64,000 nucleotides of DNA from Thermodesulfobacteriota bacterium (GCA_030583865.1 CP129479.1:1476744-1540743), one strand, 5' to 3'; numbered from the stretch's first letter, positions 1-63,897 are shown. Translations and numbers: made by a program. Notes: generated from the sequence alone by a model not told the origin.

Positions 1-53
1 TGGCAATCCGTCCGTGGATTGCCTGGCATGGTGTTTTTCAACACCCTGTCAGA
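1..53 (+). repeat. repeat family A (two-hairpin PATE-like element), 3' part, truncated by window edge
   Basis: tggcaatccgtccgtggattgc...gtgtttttcaacaccctg matches 35448-35500 and revcomp of 55081-55130. Confidence 0.8.
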
Positions 54-261
54 GCGTGTTGGCGACCTTCTGGAGCACCTCCATGAAAGCGGCGAGGCCG
101 CTTACCGGGATGACCACCGTGCTCCGCCTGTCGTTGGAGAGCTCGGCTACCTGCAGGAACCTGCCGCCTTCGTTCTCCTTCAGGTCCACGAACAGGGTCT
201 TGTTCTCTATATGCAATTTCTCGCTGGAAAGGACCTTGCTTTTTGCGCCTTCCCTTTTCAT
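49..261 (-). CDS. PUR-alpha-like (DUF3276-type) small nucleic-acid-binding protein
   Basis: 71-aa [73 protein letters not shown]. The F-x-DLKEN-x-GGRFL ... RRS-x-VIP-x-GL-x-F pattern matches bacterial Pur-like repeat proteins. Start ATG overlaps the leuD stop (ATGA). Stop codon lies inside repeat family A copy. Confidence 0.45.
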
Positions 262-752
262 ACAAACCCCCTCTTTCTTATCGACTCCATGAGCCCGCCG
301 GCCTGTATAAGCTCCTGCATGAACGGAGGCACCGGCCTGGCCGTGAAGCTCTTCCCCTTGGTGAGGTTTACGATGGAGCCGGTCGAGACGTCTATCTCGA
401 GTTCGTCCCCGTCGTCCGTGGCTCCGTATACCTCGTCGGATTCGAGTATCGTAAGCCCCATGTTGAACGAGTTCCTGTAGAAAATCCTGGCGAAGCTCTT
501 GGCGATTACGCAGGCAACCCCCGCGGCCTTTATTGCGATGGGCGCGTGCTCCCTTGACGAGCCGCACCCGAAGTTCTTGTCAGCGAGAATTATGTCCCCT
601 GGCCGCACCTTCGAGGCGAACGAGGGGTCCTCGTCCTCCATGCAGTGCTTCGCGAGCTCCGCCGGATCGGATGTGTTGAGGTATCTCGCGGGTATTATCT
701 TGTCAGTGTCTATATCGGCTCCGTACTTCCAGACCCTGCCCTTAAGCTTCAT
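258..752 (-). CDS. leuD: 3-isopropylmalate dehydratase small subunit (type 2, short form)
   Basis: 164 aa; [10 protein letters not shown] motif; aconitase swivel domain; adjacent to leuC/leuA. Confidence 0.9.
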
Positions 753-809
753 CTGCTCACCTCTGCGTAAAAAAATTTGTTTTCAGTGCCGCCTCGCGGC
801 ACTCCTGTC

Positions 810-1454
810 CTATGCCCGCCTGGCGGTTACAAGCTGCAATGACCTGCTTGCGAGAAAGACGCGCCTGAAGTCCCTGAAGCCCAGGCTTGAGAGTAGAGAT
901 TGTATATCGGTCCTCACCCATGCCCTGGCCGGCTCGCCTTCGAAAAATGTAAAGACCAGGGACTGCAAAAAACCCGCGGGCCCCTCGGCCCTGTGGAAAT
1001 CGAGTATGGAGAGCTTCCCGCCTGATTTAAGCACCCTCCCGGCCTCGAAGAGTATTCCCCTGAGCGCCTCGGGCCTGGCCTCGTGGAGGCCCATGGAGGC
1101 CATTACCCTGTCAAAAGAGCCGCCGGCGAACGGAAGCTCCGCCGCATCCCCCCTTACGAGCCCTATCCCGAGCCTTTCGTCCCCTGCCTTTTCGCGGGCG
1201 GCCTTGAGCATCCCCTCGGAAACGTCCAGCGCGAATACGCAAGCGCCGCGCCTGGCTGCCATGAGGGACAATGTCGCGGTGCCCGAGAATATCTCAAGCA
1301 CCTTCTGCCCGCCTCTAACGTCGGCCTCGTCAAGGGTCCTGGCCCTCAAGCGTGCCTCGCCGCCGAAGGGAATGGCCGCGAGCCTTACCCCGAGGTCGTA
1401 AAGCGGGGCAAGCCAATCGTACAGGTAATAATGCGGGGGGCGGGGCTTTTTCAT
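810..1454 (-). CDS. class I SAM-dependent methyltransferase (UbiE/Methyltransf_11-like)
   Basis: 214 aa; motif I VLEIFSGTATLSL and acidic LDVSEGML; inserted between leuC and leuD. Confidence 0.7.
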   Translation of the reverse strand: MKKPRPPHYYLYDWLAPLYDLGVRLAAIPFGGEARLRARTLDEADVRGGQKVLEIFSGTATLSLMAARRGACVFALDVSEGMLKAAREKAGDERLGIGLVRGDAAELPFAGGSFDRVMASMGLHEARPEALRGILFEAGRVLKSGGKLSILDFHRAEGPAGFLQSLVFTFFEGEPARAWVRTDIQSLLSSLGFRDFRRVFLASRSLQLVTARRA

Positions 1455-1484
1455 GGCGGTCTCGCGAGGCCCGGCCCTCCGGGC

Positions 1485-2753
1485 CTACTTCGATACCTCG
1501 TCCGGGTGGGCTATCCTCCCCTTTACGGCCGTTGCAGCGGCGACGGCCGGGTTCGCAAGATAGACCTCGCTCTTGGGGTCGCCCATCCTGCCCACGAAGT
1601 TCCTGTTCGTGGTCGCGAGCGCCCTCTCACCGGCGGCCAGTATGCCCATGTGGCCCCCAAGGCAGGGGCCGCAGGTGGGCGGGCTTATGACGGCACCGGC
1701 CTTGAGGAATATGTCGAAGTAGCCGAGGCGCATGGCTTCGTTGTAGATGAACGGGGTCGCCGGTATTACTATGAGCCGTACGTATTTCGCGACCTTCTGC
1801 CCCTTCAATATCCTGGCAGCGACCTTGAGGTCCTCAAGCCTGCCGTTCGTGCACGAGCCGATTATGACCTGGTCTATGGTTATGCCCTTGAGCTCCGATA
1901 CCTTTTTCGTGTTCTCCGGCAGGTGCGGGCAGGCGACGGTCGGCTCTATTCCAGAGCAGTCGTACTCCTTCACCTCGGCATAGGTGGCGCCTGGGTCGCT
2001 CGAATAGAATTTGTACGGCCTCTCGGCCCTGCCGTTCACATATTCCTCCGTGACAGCGTCAGGGGCTATTATGCCGCTCTTTGCGCCCGCTTCGATGGCC
2101 ATGTTGCACATGGCCATCCTCGAGTCCATGGAGAGCTTCTCTATGGCCCTGCCCGTGAACTCCATTGCCCTGTAGAGCGCGCCGTCCACGCCTATGTCGC
2201 CGATTACGCGGAGGATGAGGTCCTTGCCGCTGACCCACTTGTTGAGCTTCCCTTCGAAGACGAACTTGATGGACTCCGGCACCTTGAACCACACCTCGCC
2301 GGTTATCATGGCCGCGGCAAGGTCGGTCGAGCCGACGCCAGTCGAAAAGGCCCCGAGCGCGCCGTAGGTGCAGGTATGTGAGTCCGCGCCTATGACGACG
2401 TCGCCCGGCACGACTATCCCCTTCTCCGGAAGGAGCGCGTGCTCGACGCCAACGTCGCCGCCCTCGAAGTAATATTTCAGCCTCTGCTCTTTCGCGAACT
2501 CGCGGAGTATCTTGACCTGGGCCGCGGATTTTATGTCCTTGTTAGGCGTGAAGTGGTCCGGGACAAGGACGACCTTGTTCCTGTTGAAGACCTTCTTCGC
2601 GCCGATCTTCCTGAACTCGCTTATCGCGATGGGCGCGGTTATGTCGTTCCCGAGCGCGATGTCCACCCTGGCGTTTATGAGCTCGCCGGGCGCGACTTCC
2701 TTCAGCCCGGCGTGCTTCGCAAGGATCTTTTCCGTGATCGTCATCTGCCTCAT
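1485..2753 (-). CDS. leuC: 3-isopropylmalate dehydratase large subunit (type 2, archaeal-like ~420 aa form)
   Basis: Aconitase family; [14 protein letters not shown]-terminus; Cys ligands GSCTNGR and [11 protein letters not shown] extends to 2816, but start chosen at ATG 2753 with GGAGAGG upstream (2744 also possible). Confidence 0.85.
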
Positions 2754-2836
2754 GCTCTTCAAAAACCTCTCCTGGAATGTGATAAAACCCTTGCGGGCTG
2801 GAAACTCTATATGCACGCCTGCTGGAAAAGGACTTC

Positions 2837-2905
2837 TGGGGGAAACTTTCTGTAGAAAGGTTCCCCCAGAACCCCTGACTTTTAGTTCCTGAGAAGACCC
2901 CCAAG
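2837..2905. repeat. palindromic repeat family C copy 1
   Basis: gggggaaactttctgtagaaaggttccccc + agttcctgagaagaccccca; related to 29797-29900. Confidence 0.6.
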
Positions 2906-2922
2906 GCCTTTCAGCAGTCCTC

Positions 2923-4464
2923 CTAAAGCACAGGTGTGTCGCGCTTCTCCTTCTTCATGTGCTCGAGCCTGTTGAGCGCGTTTATGTAGGCCTTGGCGCT
3001 CGCGACAATTATGTCGGTGTGGGAGCCCTGGCCGAGCACGATGTGCCCGCCCTCCTGCACCCTCACGGAGACCTCTCCCTGCGCGTCGGTGCCGCCCGTG
3101 ATGGCGTTTACCGAGTATTTGAGGAGCCTGCTCTTCGTGCCGGTAAGCGAGGCTATGGTGTTGTAGGCCGCGTCCACCGGCCCGTCTCCTGTGCCTGTTC
3201 CGCTTTCGGTCCTGCCGTCGACCTCCATCTCGACCTCGGCCCTGGGGGGAGTATCGGTCCCGCTCTGCACCTTGAGCTTGACGAGCCTGTACCTGTCAGG
3301 CACCTCGACCCTCAGCACCTCGTCCTGCACTATGGCCTCGAGGTCCTCGTCGAAGACCTCCTTTTTGAGGTCGGCGAGCCGTTTGAAGGTCTCGAAGGCC
3401 CTCTCGAGGTTCTCCTGCGAAAGGTCGTAGCCCATCTCCGAGAGCCTCGTCTTGAAGGCGTGGCGGCCGGAATGCTTGCCGAGGACCAGCTTCGAGCGGG
3501 ATATGCCGACAGACTCGGGCCGCATTATCTCGTAGGTGGACTTGTCCTTGAGGAGGCCGTCCTGGTGTATGCCGGACTCGTGCGCAAAGGCGTTGTCGCC
3601 TACTATGGCCTTGTTTGGCTGCACCATTATGCCGGTTATGCCGCTTACGAGCCTGCTCGCGGGGAATATCTGCTCCGTTGTGATGCCGGTCTCGAGGCCG
3701 AGGACGTCCTTCCTCGTCCTGAGTATCATGACTATCTCTTCGAGGGAGGCGTTACCGGCCCTCTCGCCTATGCCGTTTATGGTGCACTCTACCTGCCTCG
3801 CGCCGTTCACGACCGCGGCAAGGGAGTTAGCAACCGCCAATCCCAGGTCGTTATGGCAATGAACGGATATTACCGCCCTGTCGATGTTCCTTACGTTGTC
3901 GCGTATGCCCTTTATGAGCGCGCCGAACTGGTCCGGGAGCGCATAGCCGACTGTGTCGGGGATATTAACGGTCCCGGCGCCTGCCTCGATAACGGCTTCT
4001 ATCATCTCGTAAAGGTATGCGGGCTCGGTCCTCGAAGCGTCCATTGCCGAAAACTCGACGTCGTCGACGTGGCCACGCGCCCTCTTGACCATCTCGACCG
4101 CCCTCTCGAGGGCCTCGCTCCGGGTGAGCCTGAACTGGTGCTTCAGGTGTATCTCGGAGGTCGAGATGAAGGTGTGTATCCTGGACCTGGCCGCGCCCTT
4201 TAGCGCGCCCGCCGCGGCGTCTATGTCCTCTGGCTTGCACCTGGCGAGGCTGCATATGACCGGGCCCTCGACCTCGAGCGCGATCCTCCTGACCGAGTCG
4301 AAATCGCCCGGCGAGCTGAAGGCGAAACCCGCCTCTATGACGTCGACCCCGAGCTTCGTAAGCTGCCTTGCTACGGCTATCTTCTCCTCGACGTTCATCG
4401 AGGCGCCCGGCGACTGCTCGCCGTCCCGGAGCGTCGTATCGAATATCCTGACCCTGTTGTCCAT
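2923..4464 (-). CDS. leuA: 2-isopropylmalate synthase
   Basis: 513 aa; [15 protein letters not shown]-terminus; [14 protein letters not shown]; C-terminal LeuA allosteric domain. Confidence 0.92.
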
Positions 4465-4474
4465 TACTGCGTCC

Positions 4475-52401: not shown

Positions 52402-53088
52402 CTATTCATCCCCCCTGAATAGCCACACAATAAGGGACGCCGCGGCCATGATGAGCCCGGCGCCGACGAGCAAAACGCTCAAAGCAGTCATGGGTAAAAC
52501 CGATTGGGCTGCCCCCGCCTCTCCGAGCGCCGTCGTCCGCAGGCCCGCTATGATGAGCGATAGAGGATAGAAGAAGCTCCCGGTCCCGAGCAAGGCCGCT
52601 GCCAGGGCCCTGGCCCATGAACTTACCGGAACCCAGGCCAGCATCAGGGATATGCTTATCGTGAGCACGCCGAGGCCCATCGCGTGGACATGGGCACTTG
52701 CGAGCAGTTCATGCGCGGCCCTCATATCGCGGCTCTCGCCTGAATCGGAATGCGCATCCTCGTGTCCGCCATGCATTTCATGCCCGGCGTGGGCGTCCAT
52801 TCCGTCCGGCACGGACATGCCGCTGCCTTCATGCCCGTGAAGGCCGCCCTCAATGTGCGAGTGTCCGTTCCCCTGCCTTGCGCCGTGCGCCCCATGCCCT
52901 CCCCCGCTGCTCAATACGAACTTCTCCGCGATGGAGGCCTTTTCGGCAAGACCGAGCTCCGTGTGTATGTCTTCGTGGTAGACCGTAATGTAGACCGCCC
53001 AGAAGACCCCGAAGACCACGCACGAAAGCCCGAGCAAAAGACCTATCCCCACAACCTTCAGTTCACGTCCCGCCTCTTTTTTCTTCAT
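52402..53088 (-). CDS. His-rich 4-TM membrane protein (putative metal-binding)
   Basis: 228 aa; ~70-aa loop with 18 His (HGAHGARQGNGHSHIEGGLHGHEGSG...HAGHEMHGGHEDAH); start overlaps htrA stop by 1 nt. Confidence 0.5.
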   Translation of the reverse strand: MKKKEAGRELKVVGIGLLLGLSCVVFGVFWAVYITVYHEDIHTELGLAEKASIAEKFVLSSGGGHGAHGARQGNGHSHIEGGLHGHEGSGMSVPDGMDAHAGHEMHGGHEDAHSDSGESRDMRAAHELLASAHVHAMGLGVLTISISLMLAWVPVSSWARALAAALLGTGSFFYPLSLIIAGLRTTALGEAGAAQSVLPMTALSVLLVGAGLIMAAASLIVWLFRGDE

Positions 53089-54161
53089 CAGTAATTCCTC
53101 GGCATCTCTTCAAGTTCGACCTTGATGACGACTGCTTTATTGCCCCTCAGGACCCTTACGGAAACCGTTTCACCAGGCCTGAATTGGTCTACCGCATGGT
53201 TGAGCTCGTCCATCGAGCTTACAGGTTTTCCGTTTACCCCGGTTATGAGGTCCCCGCCGGAAGCTATTATGATATTGCCGATACGCATGGTGCCGGTCGA
53301 GCCCCTGATCCCTGCCTTGTGGGCCGGGCTTCCCCCGAATACGTCTGCAACGAGCACCCCGCTGGAGGGAAAGCCCATGATCCCGGCGTCATATGCGTCG
53401 ATGGACTGGCCCGCTATGCCGAGCCACGGCCTCGACACGTAACCCTTCTCGACAAGCGATGGGACCGCCTTTTTAACCGTGTCCACGGGTATGGCGAAAC
53501 CTATGCCTATGGACCCGTTCACAGGACTGAAGATGGCGGTATTCAGGCCTATCATCCGGCCCTGGCTGTCGAGGAGCGGCCCGCCCGAGTTCCCGGGGTT
53601 TATCGCCGCGTCGGTCTGTATGATGCCGCTCATCAGCCTGCCGTTACGGGCCCGCATGGTCCGCCCGAGCGAGCTTACGATCCCGACGGTCAGCGTCTTT
53701 TCGAGCCCGAAGGGGCTCCCGATGGCGAGCGCCTTCTGGCCGACCCTGAGCGCCGATGAATCCCCGAGCCTTATGGGCTTGAGCTTCGACTGGGGGGCCT
53801 TTATGGCTATGACCGCAAGGTCGTCACCGGCGTCGACTCCTACGACCTCCGCCCTGTGCCTCGAGCCGTCGAACAGCGTGACCTCGAGGCTCCTAGCGCC
53901 CTCTATGACGTGGTAGTTCGTCACTATGTGGCCCCGCCTGTCGATTATCACCCCGGAGCCAGAGCCTGTTGCCGAAATTGGATTATAGAAGAAGTCGTAG
54001 GATATCGTCGTAGTTATGATGTTAACGACCGAGGAGCCGGCCTCGTCATAGATGCGTATGTTCATCTCCTCGTCGCTTGGAAAGACCGCAGGCGGGAGGG
54101 AAATAAAGGCAAATGCGAACGCGAGGAAAAAAACGAGAAAGGTTTTCGTGCGACCGGTCAT
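53088..54161 (-). CDS. htrA: HtrA/DegP-family serine protease with PDZ domain
   Basis: Starts MTGRTKTFLVFFLAFAF (signal); catalytic TNYHVI, DLAVI, GNSGGPL; C-terminal PDZ; ATGA overlap with GT2 stop. The longer ORF to 54701 is Arg-rich artefact. Confidence 0.85.
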   Translation of the reverse strand: MTGRTKTFLVFFLAFAFAFISLPPAVFPSDEEMNIRIYDEAGSSVVNIITTTISYDFFYNPISATGSGSGVIIDRRGHIVTNYHVIEGARSLEVTLFDGSRHRAEVVGVDAGDDLAVIAIKAPQSKLKPIRLGDSSALRVGQKALAIGSPFGLEKTLTVGIVSSLGRTMRARNGRLMSGIIQTDAAINPGNSGGPLLDSQGRMIGLNTAIFSPVNGSIGIGFAIPVDTVKKAVPSLVEKGYVSRPWLGIAGQSIDAYDAGIMGFPSSGVLVADVFGGSPAHKAGIRGSTGTMRIGNIIIASGGDLITGVNGKPVSSMDELNHAVDQFRPGETVSVRVLRGNKAVVIKVELEEMPRNY

Positions 54162-54880
54162 CTCAGCAGGTTGAACTTGACTATGTGCCAGAACGCGGCC
54201 ACTCCGTCCTTCCAGTTTATCTTCTTCCCCTCGTCGTAGGTGCGGCCCGCGTACGAAACGGAAGTCTCGTATATCTGGCATTTTTTCTTGGCGACCTTTG
54301 CCGTTATCTCGGGCTCGAAGCCGAACCTGTCGGACTCGATCCTTATGCCCTTCAGGACCTCGGTCCTGAAGGCCTTGTATCCGGTCTCCATGTCCGTAAG
54401 GTTCAGGTTCGTGAGCATGTTGGAGAAGAAGGTGAGTACCTTGTTCCCGACCGAGTGCCAGAAAAAGAGGACCCTGTGGGACTCGCCGCCTATGAACCTT
54501 GAGCCGTATACCACGTCGGCCTTGCCGTCGAAAATGGGCTGGAGGAGTTTTGGATAGTCCCTTGGGTCGTACTCGAAATCCGCGTCCTGGATGATGGTTA
54601 TGTCGCCGGTAACATGGGCGAAACCGGTCCTCAAGGCCGCGCCCTTCCCCTGGTTCCTTTCGTGCATGAGGAGCCTCAATTTCACTCCCTTTTCGTTCCA
54701 ACCCGCCTCTATGCCTTTGAGGACGTCCCTGGTGCCGTCCCTCGAGAAGTCGTCCACTATGACAAGCTCGCCGGGTATCCCGGTGTCAATCACCCTTTTT
54801 ATGACCTTGGAGACGTACTCCCTCTCGTTGTAGACAGGCATTACTATCGATACGCTCATCTTTTCAGTCGGCATAACCAA
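54158..54880 (-). CDS. family 2 glycosyltransferase (DPM1-like)
   Basis: SVSIVMPVYNE, DDFSRDGT and QDADFEYD motifs; true start may be M8 (54859). Confidence 0.8.
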   Translation of the reverse strand: MVMPTEKMSVSIVMPVYNEREYVSKVIKRVIDTGIPGELVIVDDFSRDGTRDVLKGIEAGWNEKGVKLRLLMHERNQGKGAALRTGFAHVTGDITIIQDADFEYDPRDYPKLLQPIFDGKADVVYGSRFIGGESHRVLFFWHSVGNKVLTFFSNMLTNLNLTDMETGYKAFRTEVLKGIRIESDRFGFEPEITAKVAKKKCQIYETSVSYAGRTYDEGKKINWKDGVAAFWHIVKFNLLR

Positions 54881-55285: not shown

Positions 55286-56413
55286 ATGAAGGCAAGACAA
55301 TCTTTTATCCTGCTTGCATTTTTGCTGGCGGGGCCGCTTACGTCCGAGGTTGCGTTCGCGGAGAGCAAGTTCATGAAGAGCTTCAGGACGAGCTACGAGC
55401 AGAACAGGTTCGACGCCCTGGGGTTTCTCGTCAAGACCAACAAGGACATAATACCCGGCGAGATACGCTCCCTCCTGGACGAGGCCAGGGCTGCCGAGGG
55501 GTTTGAAAAGAAGATGGCGATCCTTGACCTCGCGGCCACGATGGCGACCATGTACGGCGAGTGGCACGGCCAGGACGGGTTCATTGGCGAGATAGAAGCC
55601 ATGCAGAAAGAGGAGATGGGAAAAGAGGAGGAGAGAAAGGCCGAGCTGGAGAAATGGAAAAAATACGAGGCCTTTCCGGGCAACTTGCTCATGAGGGAAA
55701 AAGCCGAGGCAGCCGGCATGGCGCCAGTCATCTTCCCCCATTGGGTCCACAGGATCAACTTCGAATGCAAGGCCTGCCACCCCGCGCCCTTTGAGATGAA
55801 AAAGACCGGCTCAATAGGCATGACGGAGATATTCGGCGGCGGCCTTTGCGGGAAGTGCCATAACGGCACGACAGCGTTCAGCGCCGCCGAGGACTGCGAA
55901 AGATGCCACAGCGTGGGCACGCCGGGCGAGGCCCATCTCCTGGACCCGAAAAAAGCCTACGTCTCGAAGCTCAAAGAGACCTCTGAACGGCTCGGGACAG
56001 GGCTGAATCTCGACCTCCTCCCGGGCAAGGCCCTGCCTTACGACAGGTTCGGCAACATAGACTGGGGCCTCCTGGGGAAGGCCAGAAAACCGATAAAATC
56101 GATTGAGGGGGCCCCTGCCGATAAAGCGGACGAGACGAGGGACAACGAAATACTCTTCGAGTCTCCCATGCCCTACGTGAACAACGTCGTCTTCAGCCAC
56201 AAGACCCATTCGGAAAGGGTCGTGTGCTCGTCCTGCCACCAGTCTTTCTTCAAGGACCAGCTCGGCGCCAATACCGCCAGCATGAAGGACATGGCCGAAG
56301 GCGCCTCCTGCGGCGCGTGCCATCAGAAGGTGGCCTTCAAGTTCGCCGACTGCAACCGCTGCCATTCCAGGCCCGTGGCCGAGGACGCCGGTGGAGCGCT
56401 TAAGAGGAAGTAG
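55286..56413 (+). CDS. secreted multihaem (six CxxCH) c-type cytochrome
   Basis: Starts MKARQSFILLAFLLAGPLTSEVAFA (signal) after GAGAGG RBS; haem motifs CKACH, CGKCH, CERCH, CSSCH, CGACH, CNRCH. The upstream ORF extension to 55121 is encoded by repeat A copy C. Confidence 0.8.
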   Translation: MKARQSFILLAFLLAGPLTSEVAFAESKFMKSFRTSYEQNRFDALGFLVKTNKDIIPGEIRSLLDEARAAEGFEKKMAILDLAATMATMYGEWHGQDGFIGEIEAMQKEEMGKEEERKAELEKWKKYEAFPGNLLMREKAEAAGMAPVIFPHWVHRINFECKACHPAPFEMKKTGSIGMTEIFGGGLCGKCHNGTTAFSAAEDCERCHSVGTPGEAHLLDPKKAYVSKLKETSERLGTGLNLDLLPGKALPYDRFGNIDWGLLGKARKPIKSIEGAPADKADETRDNEILFESPMPYVNNVVFSHKTHSERVVCSSCHQSFFKDQLGANTASMKDMAEGASCGACHQKVAFKFADCNRCHSRPVAEDAGGALKRK

Positions 56414-56422
56414 GGGCCGAGC

Positions 56423-57577
56423 TTACCGTGTGACGGGGACGGGATGCGAGTTTTTCGACGCGGACGCGGGGCCTTTCAGCACCTCCGTGTAGACATCGAG
56501 TGTGCTCGAGGCTATGGAGTCCCAATCGAACGCGCTCTCGATAAGGGCGGCGTATTTCCGCCTTTCAGGCTCGAAGCCGCCTTGCATCGCGATTGAAAGC
56601 GCCCTTGCGAGGGCGGCCCGGTCTCCTGGCTTGAAGTAGACCTCTTTGCTTAACGGAAACTCCCTGTGCGCCGGGATGTCGCTTACGAGCGAAGGGAGAC
56701 CGTAGCTCAGCGCTTCGAGAAGGGCTATTGGAAGGCCCTCGTGATACGAGGGGAGCACGAAGCAGGAGGCGTTCGAGAAAAGCTCGGAAAGGGCCTCGCC
56801 AGTCTGGAAGCCCGTTAGGACAACCCCTTCGGTTTCGCCCGCCTTTTTCCTGACGAACCTGCTGTACTCTGTCTCATGGTCCGCGTCGCCGGCTATCACG
56901 AGCTTGTGGCCGGGCGCTTTCAACGCGGAATAAGCGGCGATGAGGTCGTGAATGCCCTTCTCCTCGACGAACCTGCAGGCGGTGAATATGTATTTTCCCG
57001 GCAGCAGGCCGAAGCGCTTGAGCGCCGCCCCGGGAGGTAAAGGCTTTTTCACCGTAACGCCGTTCGGTATGAGAAAAGAATCCCTGCCGTAAAGCTCCCT
57101 CAGGTCTTCCCTTATCCCGTTTGATATGGCTATAACGGCGTCGCTTGCGAGCACCCCGTTTTTTTCCCCGCGCCGGAGCACCTCTCTCGCGGCCCTCCCC
57201 CATTTGGCGCGTTTGTAGTCAGGGCCGTGATGTGTCATGACGACCTTGAGCCCCAGAGTTTTAGCCGCAGGGGCAAGGAGCGCAGGGCCGATGCCGTGGA
57301 TATGCAGTATATCGGGCTTAAGCCTCCTCGCCTGGAAAAGGCCGAGCAGGGTGTGCGTTATGGCCTCGAAGGACTTCTTCCTCGGGCACCAGAGGTGCGC
57401 GAATTTCACGCCGCGCCACTCGCCATTCCTTTTTCCGGGCGGGATGTAAGGGGCCCTCGTGATGACGGTAATATCGCACCCGAGCTTTGCAAGCCTCGGA
57501 TAAAGCTCTTCGCAGTGCCTTTCAACCCCGCCCTGCACGCCGGGAAAGCCCCGCGTTCCAAGGACGACTATTCTCAA
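56423..57577 (-). CDS. family 4 glycosyltransferase
   Basis: GT4 fold; start placed at TTG (LRIVVLGTRG) with GGAAGGA RBS to avoid 29-nt overlap with downstream-strand neighbour; alternative ATG at 57637. Confidence 0.72.
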   Translation of the reverse strand: MRIVVLGTRGFPGVQGGVERHCEELYPRLAKLGCDITVITRAPYIPPGKRNGEWRGVKFAHLWCPRKKSFEAITHTLLGLFQARRLKPDILHIHGIGPALLAPAAKTLGLKVVMTHHGPDYKRAKWGRAAREVLRRGEKNGVLASDAVIAISNGIREDLRELYGRDSFLIPNGVTVKKPLPPGAALKRFGLLPGKYIFTACRFVEEKGIHDLIAAYSALKAPGHKLVIAGDADHETEYSRFVRKKAGETEGVVLTGFQTGEALSELFSNASCFVLPSYHEGLPIALLEALSYGLPSLVSDIPAHREFPLSKEVYFKPGDRAALARALSIAMQGGFEPERRKYAALIESAFDWDSIASSTLDVYTEVLKGPASASKNSHPVPVTR

Positions 57578-57608
57578 AGTGGATTCTTCCTTCCGGGAAC
57601 TCAGCGCT

Positions 57609-58595
57609 TCAGCAGCCGAGGCAGGGTTTTCTGCCAAGGAGGGTCTTCATCTTGTTCCTTGCAACCCACGCGAGCGGCTTACTTATGTACTTCTTCATCA
57701 CAGGCGCCGCGGTCCCTATCATCCAGCAGTTTTTGGGGCAACTTCCGACCTTTTCACGGAGCGCCCTGGCCCTCTCGCCCTTCCATATGGAATCGAAATC
57801 GTCGGTTGCGAGGTTCCCCATGCTCCCGGCCCACACGTCTTTTTCCATCCCGTTGCACGGAAGGACCTCGCCAAAAGGATCGACGAAGAAGTTCTCGGTG
57901 CCGGCCTCGCAGGGCAGAAGCCTCGGCCTGCCTTTTATATAGTTCATGAGGCCGTAGTTGAAATACGCCCTGAACCAGTCCTTGACCCTTCCGGATGAAA
58001 GGAGCTCGCATATAAGCTCCTCGAAGCACGCGAGCGCCTCCTTTTCCTTCCTTATCGCGTTATCGTACTTATGGAAATAATCCGAATTATGGACAACGGC
58101 TGTCGCGAATTCAAGACCCATCGCCTTTGCGAGCTCGTAGAGCTCTATCATGTCCCGGGCGTTCCTGTCGGAGACGGTTATGCCGAAGCCTATGTCCTTG
58201 ACATTCATCCTGTGCAGCGCAAGCAGCGTCCGGAGGCCCCTGTCAAAGCCGTCCTTCAGGCCCCGGAGCTCGTCGTTGGCGGCAGGGAGGCCCTCGATAC
58301 TGATCCTCACCCCTATGCCCGGGTTATGCCTCGCCACTGCAAGGACCTTTTCCGTAAAGTACCCGTTCGTGCTTATGACCACCCTCTTCGCTTTTTTCCT
58401 GAGGACTGAGACTATCTCGCCTATATCGTCCCGCAGAAAGGGCTCGCCGCCCGTGATGTTGCAGAAGGCTAGCGGCGGTAGTTTCTCAAGTACCCGAGCC
58501 TTTATCTCCTCCCTGGGCTTTGTGGGGTATTCCCAGGTATTGCACATGTGGCAGCGGGCGTTGCACCTGTATGTCACGATTACCGAAGCGTCCAA
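57609..58595 (-). CDS. radical SAM protein with C-terminal SPASM domain
   Basis: 328 aa; CNARCHMC CxxxCxxC; C-terminal Cys-rich SPASM region (CEAG...PCNG...CPKNC). Confidence 0.8.
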   Translation of the reverse strand: MDASVIVTYRCNARCHMCNTWEYPTKPREEIKARVLEKLPPLAFCNITGGEPFLRDDIGEIVSVLRKKAKRVVISTNGYFTEKVLAVARHNPGIGVRISIEGLPAANDELRGLKDGFDRGLRTLLALHRMNVKDIGFGITVSDRNARDMIELYELAKAMGLEFATAVVHNSDYFHKYDNAIRKEKEALACFEELICELLSSGRVKDWFRAYFNYGLMNYIKGRPRLLPCEAGTENFFVDPFGEVLPCNGMEKDVWAGSMGNLATDDFDSIWKGERARALREKVGSCPKNCWMIGTAAPVMKKYISKPLAWVARNKMKTLLGRKPCLGC

Positions 58596-59258
58596 TTACC
58601 GTTTCTCCTGTCTGTTTTTTTTCACGGTAGACCAGACCAGCGTAAATGTCAGTGTCAGCCCGAAAAGCCTGTTCCGTATTATCCTGTAATCACTCAGCCC
58701 TGCGCCATGTGCGCAATTGTCCAGGTCGCGCCCGCTCAAAAGATGCATATAGGCGCCAGTCGCCCAGCGCTTCCCGATTTTTTCGAGGAAAAAATCGAAT
58801 TGGTCTTTTCTCAGCCAGTGCAGAAATGGCACCTTCGTGTGAGTCTCGACGGGGAAATACCTGTTCGGGGTCGTTATCAAGCCTTTTTTAGCCACTCGCG
58901 CCAGCTCCTTCAAAAAAAGCCGCTGCGCCTCAGGCCCTCCGACGTGCTCAATAACTGCGTTCGAATGAACTATGTCGAATTCATGGTCATTGAAAGGGAA
59001 TCCGCCGCCTTCATAGCTGAAAGCCCTTATATGCGGGTATCTTTTCCGGAAAATAGAAATATCTCCCAATCCTAAAGCGGTGATATTCTCCGGATAGGGA
59101 TAATGCTTAACAAGGAAGTTATCGACTTCCGAATACTCGCGGTTGGCAACGCCAACCTCGAGGAGCTTGTCCTTTGGCGAGGCCCCTAATACCTCGATAA
59201 TCTGCCCAAGCTTATTGAGCCTCGACCTGTATCTTGTCTTATCGATAAACCCTTTCAT
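58596..59258 (-). CDS. class I SAM-dependent methyltransferase
   Basis: 220 aa; LEVGVAN motif-I-like and FDIVHSNAVIEHV. Confidence 0.65.
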   Translation of the reverse strand: MKGFIDKTRYRSRLNKLGQIIEVLGASPKDKLLEVGVANREYSEVDNFLVKHYPYPENITALGLGDISIFRKRYPHIRAFSYEGGGFPFNDHEFDIVHSNAVIEHVGGPEAQRLFLKELARVAKKGLITTPNRYFPVETHTKVPFLHWLRKDQFDFFLEKIGKRWATGAYMHLLSGRDLDNCAHGAGLSDYRIIRNRLFGLTLTFTLVWSTVKKNRQEKR

Positions 59259-59270
59259 TTCCTCTCCCGC

Positions 59271-60512
59271 TCAGGCGCGCTTCATCTTGTTCTTTTTTAT
59301 TGCGTCTTCATAAATGGCAATAAGCCCCTTGTAATGGACCTCGTGGTTGAACTCGGCCTCGACCAGCGCCCTTGCATTTCTGCCGAGCCTCTCGACGAGC
59401 GCCCGGTCCGAGGCGAGCATCAATATCTTTTCCCTGAGGTCCTTCGCGTTCCCGGGCTCGAAGAGCAGCCCTGTCTCATTATCCCTTACAAGCTCAGGTA
59501 TGCCGCCGATGCGTGCGCCGACAACGGGTCTGCCTGCGGCAAAAGCCTCCAATGCGGTCCTCCCGAAGGCCTCATACCATTCCGACGGCAATATAGCAAA
59601 CATTGCCTCCGAAATCTTTCCTATAAGGGCCGGTTTTTCAAGATGGCTGAATATCCGTATGTTGGAAATTTTTTCAGATTTTATTTTTTCAAGGAGCTCA
59701 TTTTTTTGCGGGCCGTCGCCTACTATATGGAGCTCGAGCTCGATGCCCTTGAATGCCTCACAAAGCGTGATCAGGCCCTTTTCATGAGAAAGCCGCCCGA
59801 AATAAATGGCAGCAGGTGGCCCGTCCCTGAAAGGTGCCGGTTCTCGATAATCGTCCAAATCGACGATATTTGGCAATATTGCGATATCACCCACAAAGCC
59901 CATTTCTTCCAATTTGCTTTTAAGAAAGCGGCTGGTAGCGATGAACACATCAACTTCCCGATATATTCTCATCAACCTATGGAGCGTCATTTCCGAGGCC
60001 ACGAGGAGGCTGTTGGCGAAAGAACCTTTGTGGCATCTGTTAATGGCTGCCCTGTAGAAGCGCCCGCCCTTGCAGTCCTCACAGACTCGTCCGTTGGAGA
60101 GCATGGCGTACGACGGACAGACGAGCTTATAGTCCCTTAATGACATGACGACAGGAAGGCCCCTCCTTTTGAACTCGTCTATTATCGATGGCGACAGCTG
60201 GTGTGCGATGTTGTTGAGGTGGACTATATCGACGGGATACTCATCGAGGAGTTTCGAGACCATTCTTTTGGCCTCGAACGAGTAAAGGAGCCGCCCGGCG
60301 GCCTTCAGCCGTCCGGCAAAGGAAATTTTTCCGGCATAGTCCACGTTAGAGACAAAAAACCTGGAGAATTCGCTCTCGATGTTAGAGGGGTGGTCCATCG
60401 AGAAATAAGCGACCCTATGGCCTTTTTTTTCAAGCAGCCTGGCTGTCTCGAACATCGAGACCTCGGCCCCTCCCCTCGGGTAAAGGAATTTATTGGCAAA
60501 AAGTACGTTCAT
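59271..60512 (-). CDS. family 4 glycosyltransferase
   Basis: Starts MNVLFANKFLYPRGGAE; C-terminal EWYEAFGRTALEAFAAGRPVV E-x7-E motif. Confidence 0.8.
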   Translation of the reverse strand: MNVLFANKFLYPRGGAEVSMFETARLLEKKGHRVAYFSMDHPSNIESEFSRFFVSNVDYAGKISFAGRLKAAGRLLYSFEAKRMVSKLLDEYPVDIVHLNNIAHQLSPSIIDEFKRRGLPVVMSLRDYKLVCPSYAMLSNGRVCEDCKGGRFYRAAINRCHKGSFANSLLVASEMTLHRLMRIYREVDVFIATSRFLKSKLEEMGFVGDIAILPNIVDLDDYREPAPFRDGPPAAIYFGRLSHEKGLITLCEAFKGIELELHIVGDGPQKNELLEKIKSEKISNIRIFSHLEKPALIGKISEAMFAILPSEWYEAFGRTALEAFAAGRPVVGARIGGIPELVRDNETGLLFEPGNAKDLREKILMLASDRALVERLGRNARALVEAEFNHEVHYKGLIAIYEDAIKKNKMKRA

Positions 60513-60554
60513 GGCGAATGTAATCAAATACCTTTCTTGGCTTGTTGATGACAA

Positions 60555-61832
60555 TTAATAGGCGGCATATCCCGGCGTAACGGCCCTCTTGATCCTCCTA
60601 TGAAAAGCATAAGCCATTGCCGCGACGGTTATTGTCTCCGAGAGCACTATCGCCTCGGCCGCCCCTGTTGCGCCACGCGCCATGACAAGCGGGGGGCCGA
60701 GTGCGAAGATGGCGATGACCCCGAGCATTGTCATGAGGTTGTGTAGCCTTTGACGTCCTGCCGCTGAAAAAGCGTTCCCGTACCCATACCTGAGATAGAC
60801 CAGGGGGACCAGCCAGACGATGACCCGGAATATGCCCACGCTCTCCTCATACTGGTTGCCGAAAAGAAGCATCACGAGACCGGAACCCCAGACAGTGCCA
60901 AGAACTCCGATAGGCGTCCCGATGGATATCATTATCATCTTCAGTCTTTTATGCGAAGCGAAGAAGGCTTCCCTGTCCTTTACGAAATGCTCGGAAAGGG
61001 CCGGGTAAAAGGCCGTCGGTATGAGGTATCCGGCGCTGCACGCGGCAAGTATTATCCTGTAAGGGGCCGAAAAAAGACCGACCTCGTAGGAGGACATGAA
61101 GAACTGGAGCAGCAGCACCGGCATGAATATGTAGAGAAGGAAGAAGCCGCCGGAGACGGTGAAATAAACGGACTCCCTGATATGATGGAGCCAGAGGCGG
61201 GGGCTGAAAACGGGCCTTACACGGACGCCCGTTATGCGCTTCAACATCAAGATGAGGGCAACTGACCCGCACAGGAACGAAAGGGACGAAAGGAGCGCGG
61301 CCAGGGCGGTGTCCGCCTGGTCGTCGACTAAGACAAGGATGGATGCCAGGAACACGCCGGAAGTTATGAAGCTCCCGACGGCGATGAACTTGAACTTTTC
61401 GAGGCCCTTGAGCACCCAGTCCGGATAGAAAGAGTTCGTGAGTAGATAGAGTCCGGAAAAAACGAAGACGAGCCTTGTCTCTGGCTGCATATCCATTATG
61501 AAAAGCGTCCCTGAATAAACCGAGAAGAAAAAAATCCCGCTCATCATCCTCAGGGTGATTAGCGGGTTCGCGATGGATTCAGCCTCGCATTTCCTCCTGG
61601 CGATCTCCCTTATACCGTACATCCCGATGCCTATGTCGACCATAACCCACAGGTAGAGGGTGATTATCTGGGCGACCGAGAAAACGCCGAAATTGGAGAC
61701 GCCGAGCACCCGCGCGAGATGGACGTTTGTTATGAAGATGACGCCTTTTGCGGCCCCTTCGCCAAGAAGAGACCAGAAGAAATTCGAGGCGACCCTCTTT
61801 TTCGAGAAAAAAGACATTAGCCAGGATACCAT
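60555..61832 (-). CDS. wzx: polysaccharide/oligosaccharide flippase (Wzx, MOP superfamily)
   Basis: 425 aa; ~12 TM; Wzx-like. Confidence 0.7.
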   Translation of the reverse strand: MVSWLMSFFSKKRVASNFFWSLLGEGAAKGVIFITNVHLARVLGVSNFGVFSVAQIITLYLWVMVDIGIGMYGIREIARRKCEAESIANPLITLRMMSGIFFFSVYSGTLFIMDMQPETRLVFVFSGLYLLTNSFYPDWVLKGLEKFKFIAVGSFITSGVFLASILVLVDDQADTALAALLSSLSFLCGSVALILMLKRITGVRVRPVFSPRLWLHHIRESVYFTVSGGFFLLYIFMPVLLLQFFMSSYEVGLFSAPYRIILAACSAGYLIPTAFYPALSEHFVKDREAFFASHKRLKMIMISIGTPIGVLGTVWGSGLVMLLFGNQYEESVGIFRVIVWLVPLVYLRYGYGNAFSAAGRQRLHNLMTMLGVIAIFALGPPLVMARGATGAAEAIVLSETITVAAMAYAFHRRIKRAVTPGYAAY

Positions 61833-61984
61833 CGCGCGCGCCTTTACGAAACCGAAAAGGCCGCAAAGAGCGATGGGACGAACTCCGAGAGCGACGACGA
61901 GACCACTACCGCGCGCTTTGGCCCGGCTTTCTTATCTAAATGCTCAGGTGTATGGAGACCATGTGCCGCAGTGTTTTCCCCCGC

Positions 61985-62045
61985 CTCCGCCTTGCGCACC
62001 CTCGCCATGGGAAGCTTATTCGCAAAAAATATATTCATGGCAAAG
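61985..62045 (-). pseudogene. fragment resembling the 5' end and first ~15 codons of the GT4 gene at 59271-60512
   Basis: MNIFFANKLP... versus MNVLFANKFLYP...; ~75% nt identity over ~48 bp including upstream ttattcgcaaaaa. Confidence 0.3.
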
Positions 62046-62067
62046 ACCAAATACCCTTCCTGCCCTG

Positions 62068-63897
62068 CTACCGGATGGCAGAGGCACACCTTTCCTCCCG
62101 GTACTTATTGATTTCCGAATCGAACAGGGACTCTGCCTGCCCTGAAAAGTTTTTACCCCAGGTAAGCATGTTTTTCAATGGATATCTTGCGACTATCGAG
62201 GGGGAATGGTCGTTTATGAGCTTCCATCTCATCCGCTCCTCCTTCATATCAATCTTCCAGTCGTCGTCCCTGTGGAGCATCACCCCGAACCTTTTTCCGT
62301 TCTTCTCCGCAACCTTCTTGAACGCGTCCACGTAGAACCCGATATTCGCGCTTACGGGGGGGTAGGTCTCGCAGATTATGGCGTCTATGTGCGGCGATGC
62401 CGCCATTTTTTCCAGGTCTACCCCCCGCTGCATCCCCCACGCGCCCCATTTGTGCGTGGACGGCACGGTGAAGCCCTTTTCCGCTATACCCTCGTAGGGG
62501 AGGCTCCACTGGTGGAGGCCGAAATAGATAACGCCCCTCCACTCGGGATTCTTCTCATTCACCTTGTTCGCCATAGCCGCCACCTGGTCTATCCACGACG
62601 ACTGGAAGAGGCCCGTCGTGAATTCATGCCAGTGCCTCCACACGCCTTCGGCCCTCGGAAGCTCGCTGAAGGACTGGCCCGGACGGACCACCTCGGGGAC
62701 GTTATAGCCCGGGAAATACCCGGTCAGCCCGCCGCCGTTCCCAACCATCTCGGGCCTGTGCACAGGGAATTTGTCGACGAGCCTGCCGTCGAACGTCACG
62801 TTATTCCTCCTGCAGTATTCTTTCCAGGCCTCCAGCACCGCGGGGCTGTATGTTGCGTTATTCCAGTAGTCGAACCTGTTGTTGTTTCCCCTGTCCATTT
62901 CACCGAAATAGACGAGGACGTCTTCATTGAAGAAAAACCCGCTGAGGAGTCCTTTGAACGGCTCAAGGTATCTCTTCTCGTATTCCCCGAGGAAATCGGA
63001 AACAGCCTCACGGTTCAGGACATCGAAAAGCGGCCTCCCGTTCGTCTCGGCAGGGACTATCGTGCCGTCATTGAGCATCCTGTGAGCCTGGTATTCAGGG
63101 GTAATCTCAATGAACGCCCTTATCCTCTCGGGAAGCCTCCACGAGGTAGCCCAGAGCTCAATGCCGTACGCCCTGGCGCGCCCGGCGATCTCGCGGTGGA
63201 CCCTGAGGTCGTCCGTTGAGTAGAAGAGCGTCTCGTACTCGATGCCGTCGACCCGCCCGCTCAATTCCCTGAATATCCCGTCAGCTTCTTCAACCGTGCT
63301 TATGGCGCCGTATCTGCTGCTGTAATAGGTGCTCAATGACTGGACAAGGAGATATGCGCCGCATTCGCCGGGAGTGCCGGCCCCGCTGCCCCCGATTCCG
63401 TCCGTACGGGCCCTGTGCAGCGTCTTGGCAAACCGCCCCTCGCCGGTCTCAATCACAGCCACGTGAGGCTCTATGCTCTTGAGGACGCCCGCTCCGAATA
63501 CGCTGTCCCCGACATGGAAGCCCTCGCGCTCGCCTGTCTCTATATTCAGGAAAAAAGCGTTCCCCTGGCCGGTATCGCTCACTGAAGTGCCTATGAGCTC
63601 GATACCGCGGATTGGTATCTGTCCTTTTTTCTCATAGGCTGCGAAACTTTCAGCGCCGGCATCGATCATGGCGGAGGGGGACACGTCGAAGTCGACCTCC
63701 GTCATGGCGAGCCGGGCTTTAGCGGCGATTTCATGCTGTGCCTGTTTTGGAGCTGAAACGCCGCCTGCCTTCCATCCATGTGCGCCGGCAGCGTGGAAGG
63801 CGTCTTTCCGCGCCATTGTTATCCCCACGGTCAGGAAGAAAACGGCGAATATCAGGAAAATGCCTGCAAGTATGTTTTTCGATGGCGCTGACCGCAT
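62068..63897 (-). CDS. large membrane-anchored exported hypothetical protein (polysaccharide cluster)
   Basis: 609 aa; N-terminal TM; no recognised catalytic motif. Confidence 0.45.
   Translation of the reverse strand: MRSAPSKNILAGIFLIFAVFFLTVGITMARKDAFHAAGAHGWKAGGVSAPKQAQHEIAAKARLAMTEVDFDVSPSAMIDAGAESFAAYEKKGQIPIRGIELIGTSVSDTGQGNAFFLNIETGEREGFHVGDSVFGAGVLKSIEPHVAVIETGEGRFAKTLHRARTDGIGGSGAGTPGECGAYLLVQSLSTYYSSRYGAISTVEEADGIFRELSGRVDGIEYETLFYSTDDLRVHREIAGRARAYGIELWATSWRLPERIRAFIEITPEYQAHRMLNDGTIVPAETNGRPLFDVLNREAVSDFLGEYEKRYLEPFKGLLSGFFFNEDVLVYFGEMDRGNNNRFDYWNNATYSPAVLEAWKEYCRRNNVTFDGRLVDKFPVHRPEMVGNGGGLTGYFPGYNVPEVVRPGQSFSELPRAEGVWRHWHEFTTGLFQSSWIDQVAAMANKVNEKNPEWRGVIYFGLHQWSLPYEGIAEKGFTVPSTHKWGAWGMQRGVDLEKMAASPHIDAIICETYPPVSANIGFYVDAFKKVAEKNGKRFGVMLHRDDDWKIDMKEERMRWKLINDHSPSIVARYPLKNMLTWGKNFSGQAESLFDSEINKYREERCASAIR

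Follow-up and report, generated by a model that had tools for sequence, protein, structure and literature searches.

What does a radical S-adenosylmethionine (rSAM) enzyme do among the sugar transferases of a polysaccharide locus? The question is raised by a 64,000-nucleotide stretch of DNA from a Thermodesulfobacteriota bacterium (GCA_030583865.1 CP129479.1:1476744-1540743), referred to here as the window, in which the region from 56423 to 63897 on the minus strand was analysed and the gene labels were checked against the cutoffs of Pfam and NCBIfam. The rSAM gene of this region (57609-58595, minus strand, 328 aa) stands between two genes for family 4 glycosyltransferases, GT4a and GT4b. The preferred answer, to which a probability of roughly 0.65 is given, is that the enzyme performs a glycan-directed radical step inside a conserved GT4-rSAM-GT4 cassette, with the chemistry proposed by analogy. 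The cassette itself is conserved, widespread and uncharacterised.

The GT4a gene (56423-57637, minus strand, 404 aa) matches Pfam Glyco_transf_4 at 94 bits and Glycos_transf_1 at 90 bits. The open reading frame (ORF) of GT4b (59271-60554, minus strand, 427 aa) matches Glycos_transf_1 at 116.6 bits, and its true start is likely the ATG at 60512, giving a protein of 413 aa, as called on L001, an independent assembly. In the search for the cassette, the window proteins were compared with all fetched loci and the ORFs of 84 loci were clustered; the synteny counts refer to 76 loci of other genomes, taken from the 80 best-matching of 511 genomes. Only two gene families, GT4a and GT4b, were co-conserved with the rSAM. 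GT4a lies directly downstream of it in 72 of the 76 loci, most commonly with a 4-nt overlap (29 nt in the window), and GT4b precedes it on the same strand in 60, which places the gene arrangement beyond chance. Of the three, the rSAM is best conserved, with a median identity to the window protein of 64%, compared to 48% for GT4a and 46% for GT4b. GT4a has a DUF1972-like N-domain and no conserved cysteine. In the N-terminal domain of GT4b, four cysteines (C146, C158, C161 and C174, spaced C-X11-C-X2-C-X12-C) are 98-100% conserved among 62 orthologues, a pattern that suggests a zinc or iron-sulfur site in a GT4 that accompanies an rSAM enzyme. The GT4b-rSAM-GT4a arrangement is best explained as a mobile three-gene cassette.

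The surroundings of the cassette point to glycan assembly and export. A WbaP-like phosphoglycosyltransferase gene directly follows GT4a in 19 loci, and a MOP flippase, a Wzy/O-antigen-ligase-like protein or a priming transferase is encoded within 10 kb in 54 of the 76 loci; many of the loci that have none of these within that distance are short contigs. In Parabacteroides sp. ASD2025, the cassette stands last in a capsule-type locus that also has a flippase and nonulosonic-acid genes. The tailoring genes around the cassette are highly varied: it adjoins a carbamoyltransferase and an SxtJ-like gene in two Ca. Brocadia loci (L004 and L005), and a sulfotransferase, a Wzy-like gene and B12-rSAM genes in a Hodarchaeota locus (L008). 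Fusions were also found among distant relatives of the rSAM (36-40% identity), which is joined to a GT4a orthologue in P0132, to a GT4 in the order GT4-rSAM in P0208, to a family 2 glycosyltransferase (GT2) in the order GT2-rSAM in P0161, P0251 and P0238, and to a methyltransferase in P0260. The GT4 half of P0132 is 45% identical to GT4a. The GT4 synteny across more than 20 lineages, the glycosyltransferase and methyltransferase fusions, the 54 loci with export or priming genes and the lack of a conserved small ORF near the rSAM support a role in glycan assembly rather than in the maturation of a ribosomally synthesised and post-translationally modified peptide (RiPP), as the first-pass annotation of this DNA had proposed.

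The scan, which covered one genome per species, found an rSAM relative in the 511 genomes mentioned above. In the best 80 of these, the protein is 58-95% identical to that of the window and occurs in more than 20 phylum-level lineages, the carriers including Thermodesulfobacteriota, Nitrospirota, Nitrospinota, anammox and other Planctomycetota, Verrucomicrobiota/Kiritimatiellia, Elusimicrobia, Spirochaetes, Ignavibacteria, Aminicenantes, Actinomycetota, Eubacteriales, Omnitrophota, Zixibacteria, WOR-3, Zeta- and Gammaproteobacteria, Bacteroidales (Parabacteroides, Alistipes and Muribaculaceae) and Thermosulfurimonas dismutans. A metagenome-assembled genome of Hodarchaeota (Asgard) carries a copy that is 69% identical. 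Clustering at 50% gave only 241 rSAM representatives below E = 1e-30, and no relative was found in IMG/VR. The best 120 database matches are all 64-95% identical and, except for two, named only "radical SAM protein". Judged by its sequence, the rSAM belongs to a very conserved family that has no curated name and falls into no named family. The homologues P0077 and P0088 bear the JGI name "Fe-coproporphyrin III synthase" (AhbD); this is likely a misannotation, as the AhbD model gives 61 bits against a cutoff of 500 and so contradicts the name.

Several observations weigh against a glycan-directed cassette. The synteny counts come from the best-matching genomes only. In L006, L007 and L020, which are Kiritimatiellia/Verrucomicrobia loci, the rSAM (67% identical) stands alone, with neither GT4 gene; there it lies between pta-ackA and the hydrogenase-maturation genes hypF-hypC-hypD, a position that the cassette model leaves unexplained. 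Some of the fusions could be gene-calling artefacts, since the unfused genes overlap by 4 nt and a single frameshift may be enough to join them. A priming transferase and a Wzy were not identified among the large ORFs of the window, most of which were covered. In the Foldseek comparison, the peptide-modifying enzymes SkfB, anSME and SuiB rank as high as the sugar-modifying ones, and both the substrate and the reaction type of the rSAM are proposed by analogy. The literature searched, which omits most subscription journals, held no paper on the rSAM family; the rSAM genes mentioned in papers on Geobacter exopolysaccharide and in a paper on viral auxiliary metabolic genes are unrelated.

The assignment to the radical SAM superfamily is straightforward. 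The CX3CX2C motif (C11/C15/C18) and the GGE motif (G49-G50-E51) are invariant in a 19-sequence cross-phylum alignment, and PF04055 Radical_SAM is matched at 63.7 bits (cutoff 29.5). In these homologues, the only other invariant cysteines are C229, C247, C286 and C290, all of which are C-terminal; the segment C229-X17-C247 contains GX4C, and the last pair, C286/C290, is CX3C. The seven-cysteine SPASM motif was reportedly described by Grell et al. in 2015 as CX9-15GX4C ... CX2CX5CX3C ... C. The full motif does not occur in the rSAM, although PF13186 SPASM is matched at 39.3 bits (cutoff 21.5): the CX2C pair and the flanking cysteines are absent, and four cysteines are present compared to roughly seven to eight in SPASM domains. 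A twitch domain is a truncated SPASM-like domain, consisting of a β-hairpin and a helix, that holds one auxiliary cluster through three or four cysteines. SPASM domains bind two such clusters (PMC13459092). The AlphaFold2 model of the rSAM, with a mean predicted local distance difference test (pLDDT) score of 86, shows a predicted β-hairpin at residues 235-245 followed by helices, and in the family profile, residues 221-287 align to the twitch domain of BtrN, marginally at 33 bits. The NCBIfam model NF033640, "twitch domain rSAM", gives 38.6 bits against a cutoff of 170. The enzyme is read as twitch-like with one predicted auxiliary cluster, and not as a full SPASM enzyme, because its four invariant C-terminal cysteines are enough for one cluster. 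The earlier SPASM label thus holds for the Pfam match and fails on the cysteine count. Neither a B12 domain nor a second SAM site was found in the protein, so nothing suggests that it is a methylase.

The fold relatives found by Foldseek are generic SPASM and twitch enzymes, namely SkfB, anSME, SuiB, MoaA, AbmM and SpeY, and the best superposition is with BlsE, with template modelling (TM) scores of 0.65/0.65 and a root-mean-square deviation of 5.3 Å. For the rSAM, both GT4 proteins and the 609-aa protein encoded at the end of the six-gene run, all NCBIfam models stay below their cutoffs. With the rSAM, the bit scores and cutoffs are 62 and 265 for the mycofactocin maturase MftC, 61 and 500 for AhbD, 60 and 515 for NirJ, 42 and 284 for MoaA, and 51 and 850 for AlbA. 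The possibility raised with the first-pass annotation, that the enzyme might cluster firmly with anaerobic sulfatase-maturating enzymes (anSMEs) or another defined non-glycan family, can be put aside, as the curated models are far below their cutoffs. The anSME model is not among the 25 NCBIfam matches listed for the rSAM; only four C-terminal cysteines are present, and the likeness in fold to anSME is generic. Proteins with a sulfatase fold are encoded in 6 of the 76 loci, and the one that was inspected lacks a CxPxR motif and has a membrane domain at its N-terminus.

Since the glycan reading competes with explanations in which the rSAM has another target, these were weighed against the same evidence. 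Most SPASM and twitch enzymes are peptide or protein maturases, and the rSAM might accordingly modify a RiPP precursor, a glycoprotein acceptor or a partner transferase, for example at the Cys4 site of GT4b, whose four near-invariant cysteines have no assigned role. Its best sequence and fold matches, which include the MftC model, AlbA, SkfB, anSME and SuiB, are in keeping with such a function. The scores of the MftC (TIGR03962, 61.8 bits) and AlbA models far below their cutoffs speak against it, as do the four C-terminal cysteines, and no mftA, mftB, mftD or mftE neighbours were found in the window or in the 76 loci. The rSAM has no Pfam match to a RiPP recognition element (RRE), and its catalytic motif begins as early as residue 11, with ten residues before it, which leaves no room for such a peptide-recognition domain; no RRE/PqqD-like partner was found either. 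For the precursor search, ORFs of 20-100 aa outside longer called ORFs and within 4 kb of the rSAM were collected from 72 loci and clustered. No cluster extended beyond two closely related loci, and no Cys- or Gly-rich candidate was seen among the window ORFs of at least 25 aa. The earlier remark that no precursor peptide ORF is evident therefore stands, also in the wider search for small ORFs with Cys- or Gly-rich cores that had been suggested with it, and a RiPP role is unlikely for want of a conserved small ORF. The fusion partners, moreover, have different glycosyltransferase folds (GT4 and GT2), and this is more readily reconciled with a common sugar substrate than with one particular protein target. 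A peptide or protein maturase is thus considered improbable.

An equally improbable explanation is that the cassette makes a membrane glycolipid, with the GT4 enzymes glycosylating a diacylglycerol-type or ether lipid and the rSAM modifying the lipid or its sugar head group in the manner of HpnJ and the calditol synthase Cds. Both GT4 proteins show weak matches to Mgs, Dgs, IagA/BgsA and GlcN-PG synthase, the window operon has no identified priming transferase or Wzy, and rSAM chemistry on a head group has a precedent in Cds (PMC13459092). The glycolipid-synthase matches, however, amount to 26-75 bits against cutoffs of 400-500, a Wzx, Wzy or priming transferase is found in most loci, including the 19 with the WbaP-like gene after GT4a, and the enzymes encoded between GT4b and rSAM in other genomes are of kinds usual in polysaccharide tailoring. 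A heme or cofactor enzyme of the AhbD, NirJ or MoaA type, merely placed among glycan genes, is far less probable still. It would agree with the JGI name of the two homologues and with the matches of the AhbD, NirJ and MoaA models to the N-terminal core; those of AhbD (TIGR04545, 61.1 bits), NirJ (TIGR04051, 60.4 bits) and MoaA, however, are far below the cutoffs and cover residues 7-162 only. Chance placement among glycosyltransferase genes is excluded by the adjacency in 72 of 76 loci together with the fusions, and the explanation is thereby already contradicted. The glycan-directed radical step is therefore retained as the preferred reading.

A course for this step can be proposed from the observed gene content, cassette conservation, fusions, cysteine pattern and folds, with the substrate, the order of events and the reaction type kept conditional. 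A priming transferase encoded elsewhere would make a polyprenyl-diphosphate-linked sugar, to which GT4a, a DUF1972/WchF-like GT4, would add the next sugar. The rSAM would then cleave SAM reductively, and the resulting 5'-deoxyadenosyl radical would abstract a hydrogen atom from a sugar C-H bond. Its substrate would be a lipid-linked intermediate, or possibly a nucleotide-sugar donor, the intermediate being made and consumed by the two GT4 enzymes. The electron would be handled by a single auxiliary [4Fe-4S] cluster that is fully ligated by cysteines. All four non-catalytic invariant cysteines would be needed for this cluster and none would be left as a hydrogen-atom donor, so that a cysteine-dependent epimerisation, which together with C-methylation had been given as an example in the first-pass annotation, is less likely than an oxidation of the BtrN/anSME type or a redox-neutral rearrangement. 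The most likely outcome would accordingly be either a BtrN-like two-electron oxidation, from alcohol to carbonyl, or a redox-neutral rearrangement; oxidation specifically, which is suggested by analogy with BtrN, is a doubtful choice when taken by itself. An exchangeable enzyme, here a class I methyltransferase, might decorate the unit, which GT4b would extend and the Wzx flippase would transfer across the membrane, and the polymer might be processed outside the cytoplasm by a membrane-anchored protein resembling glycoside hydrolases (GH).

The methyltransferase gene (58596-59258, minus strand, 220 aa) matches PF08241 Methyltransf_11 at 29.4 bits (cutoff 21.2), over part of the model. The class I annotation of its homologues, which have PF08241 or PF13649, agrees with its class. 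Roughly one third of the loci with GT4b have at least one gene in the slot between GT4b and rSAM, and the occupants elsewhere include three further methyltransferase families, a hexapeptide acetyltransferase, an Acyl_transf_3 protein, a sulfotransferase, B12-binding rSAM enzymes and extra GT4 proteins. Only two further genomes, L025 and L047, have a homologue of the window methyltransferase in the slot. This tailoring enzyme is an accessory that can be exchanged, and not a fixed partner of the cassette. The first-pass annotation had described a cluster containing an rSAM enzyme and a methyltransferase; both are present, and only the former belongs to the conserved core.

Comparison with the closest relatives, L009 and L091, indicates a mosaic locus. 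Their rSAM is 94-95% identical to that of the window, GT4a 86-90% and the GT2 gene 95-97%, whereas GT4b is only 48-50% identical; the 609-aa protein of L091 is 79% identical. In both, a B12-rSAM gene fills the slot instead of the class I methyltransferase gene, and Wzx is missing at the corresponding position. The GC content at third codon positions (GC3) is 0.59 for the methyltransferase gene and 0.62 for GT4b, compared to 0.71-0.80 for their neighbours. Directly after the stop codon of the 609-aa gene, a relic of GT4b of about 60 nt (61999-62060, minus strand) was found by peptide match and by DNA alignment to the 5' end of GT4b. It comprises the ribosome-binding site and the first codons of that gene, with the peptide MNIFFANK where GT4b has MNVLFANK, and about 80% DNA identity over about 50 nt. 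The relic, as its sequence indicates, is a scar of cassette rearrangement. The mosaic identities, the low GC3 and the relic together point to a recent exchange of the block from the start of the rSAM gene to the 609-aa gene. An 81-aa ORF called automatically at 61844-62089, between the 609-aa gene and Wzx, was considered as a precursor and rejected, since it is this 5'-end relic of GT4b.

The 609-aa protein (62068-63897, minus strand) has no Pfam or NCBIfam match. Its AlphaFold2 model, with a pLDDT of 80.5 overall and above 90 in the barrel, consists of a transmembrane helix at residues 8-35, a disordered linker, a small β domain at 99-159 and a (β/α)8 barrel at 182-609. The top Foldseek matches of the barrel are GH5 mannanases, the peptidoglycan hydrolase Cwp19 and GH113, with an E value of 1.6e-8 and TM scores of 0.54-0.58 (target). 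Enzymes of clan GH-A have a (β/α)8 barrel in which the acid/base glutamate follows strand 4, in an NE motif, and the nucleophile glutamate follows strand 7. In the 609-aa protein, N324-E325 (FFNED, strand 320-324) is invariant and E510 (ICETYP, strand 506-511) is at least 90% conserved; on the model, the positions of E325 and E510 fit those of the GH-A acid/base and nucleophile, which makes them a candidate catalytic pair. The family is rare, with 54 matches, none of which has a Pfam domain. The protein is read as a new family and a predicted periplasmic glycan-processing hydrolase; hydrolases with a comparable role at the operon level are carried by other exopolysaccharide systems. Its earlier description as a large exported protein is corrected by the model and the fold comparison to a membrane-anchored protein with a GH-like barrel. 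As a conserved part of the cassette, it was rejected, since homologues outside the close relatives lie in unrelated contexts.

Taken as a whole, the region from 56423 to 63897 consists of six co-oriented, closely packed ORFs on the minus strand, for GT4a, rSAM, the class I methyltransferase, GT4b, Wzx and the 609-aa protein. The junctions in this order are a 29-nt overlap, 0, 12, 0 and 235 nt. The flippase gene (60555-61832, minus strand, 425 aa) matches Polysacc_synt at 91.9 bits and, weakly, the MOP flippase model NF007773. Of the components expected in a Wzx/Wzy-type polysaccharide locus, Wzx and two GT4 genes are present in the window. The same six genes are called in identical order on assembly L001, so the co-oriented run with short gaps that had been noted at the outset is confirmed in an independent assembly. 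The labels GT4, rSAM, methyltransferase, GT4 and Wzx are all backed by Pfam, the 609-aa protein being the exception. The six genes are best explained as a single operon for the synthesis and export of a surface glycan. Scans of the locus for promoters and terminators gave nothing above chance, and a pattern scan of the 230-bp gap for the sigma-54 promoter consensus was likewise no better than chance.

On the 3' side of GT4a lie a triheme c7-type cytochrome gene on the opposite strand, a GT2 gene and a gene for an HtrA protease. The GT2 gene (54158-54880, minus strand) encodes a polyprenyl-phosphate glycosyltransferase-like protein (AglJ/ArnC-like) that matches Glycos_transf_2 at 114 bits and the AglJ model at 117 bits (cutoff 325). 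Its copies in L009 and L091 are at the equivalent position, and whether it is part of the glycan pathway is uncertain. The cytochrome (55286-56413, plus strand) is a secreted multiheme protein with two c7-type triheme "nanowire" domains (TIGR04257, 129 bits), wedged between the glycan operon and the GT2 gene and kept there in relatives with 87-91% identity. The mechanically called HtrA/DegP ORF (53088-54880, minus strand, 537 aa) shares more than 500 nt with the GT2 gene; its first ~200 residues are rich in Arg and Gly, relatives call a protease of 325 aa, and these residues are probably not translated. The other large ORFs annotated in the window have housekeeping functions (leu/ilv, dxr, rseP, pur, rnf and cytochrome c biogenesis). 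Beyond the right end of the window, L001 continues (1-4468) with pilT/pilC-like genes, then pilS and a sigma-54 pilR-type regulator gene, and L091 (2237-9684) has a fuller block, pilB-pilT-pilC-pilS-pilR, complete and ending directly upstream of the operon. No pilin gene was seen between the pilR-type regulator and the operon in L001 or L091. A weak ScmC/HprK-like match of a neighbouring gene in L091 was rejected as non-significant.

If the cassette acts as its anatomy suggests, a surface-glycan modification common to anaerobes across the tree would be invisible to standard annotation, where the rSAM proteins are currently labelled "radical SAM protein" or miscalled as the heme synthase AhbD. 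The misnaming could inflate "ahbD" counts in metagenome and virome surveys, and the finding bears on the reading of "ahbD-like" genes in metagenomes as well as on the capsule structures of gut Bacteroidales. Cultured carriers exist, among them Thermosulfurimonas dismutans and several Parabacteroides isolates, such as P. acidifaciens 426-9 and strain ASD2025. To our knowledge, radical SAM enzymes that act on sugars have been described almost exclusively in antibiotic pathways, and no description of an rSAM step within Wzx/Wzy-type repeat-unit assembly was found in the literature searched, most subscription journals being excluded. With slightly less than even odds, this may be the first rSAM enzyme that acts inside such an assembly, where it would make an undescribed change to a sugar of a lipid-linked intermediate after one dedicated GT4 step and before the other. 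The cassette would then be horizontally mobile between anaerobes that belong to more than 20 phylum-level lineages, with gut Bacteroidales, anammox bacteria and Asgard archaea among them, and the Cys4 site of GT4b would perhaps be a metal or iron-sulfur partner.

Among known systems, those that come closest in how they act are the twitch rSAM enzymes from the biosynthesis of aminoglycoside and nucleoside antibiotics, namely BtrN, SpeY, HygY, AbmM and BlsE. With BtrN (2-deoxy-scyllo-inosamine dehydrogenase), SpeY, HygY and AbmM, the window enzyme shares its small size, a C-terminal twitch-like domain and a context of sugar metabolism; its Cys-X17-Cys hairpin and two more cysteines imply one auxiliary cluster, as in that group, and SpeY and AbmM are among its fold matches. 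The sequence likeness of BtrN to the family is marginal, at the 33 bits given above, and the last cysteine pair of BtrN is CX2C, where the window enzyme has CX3C. The BtrN group acts on soluble aminoglycoside or nucleoside intermediates in antibiotic clusters, whereas the enzyme studied here is encoded in Wzx/Wzy-type surface-glycan loci. BlsE, the cytosylglucuronate decarboxylase of blasticidin S, resembles it as an rSAM enzyme that acts on a sugar ring and gives the best superposition; the identity, however, is 16%, and the sequence match, 31.6 bits, lies in the rSAM core only. UDP-glucose dehydrogenase is encoded in only 9 of the 76 loci, so that a uronic-acid substrate would not be general.

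The SPASM maturases anSME, MftC, PqqE, AlbA and SkfB are comparable in the Pfam SPASM match and in their high fold ranks, and the MftC model aligns over nearly the whole length of the rSAM. They differ in that the window enzyme has four of the roughly seven to eight cysteines, with at most one auxiliary cluster expected, and has no RRE, no precursor peptide and no sulfatase, MftA, MftB or PqqA partner. In the logic of the pathway, the cassette resembles the synthesis of the cyclitol ether by HpnI and HpnJ, in which a glycosyltransferase adds a sugar and an rSAM enzyme remodels it on the lipid carrier. The same holds for Cds, an rSAM enzyme that remodels a glycosyltransferase-installed sugar on a lipid carrier (PMC13459092). 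HpnJ differs as a B12-binding rSAM enzyme, and both systems belong to hopanoid or tetraether loci, in contrast to the polysaccharide loci in which the GT4-rSAM-GT4 cassette is found.

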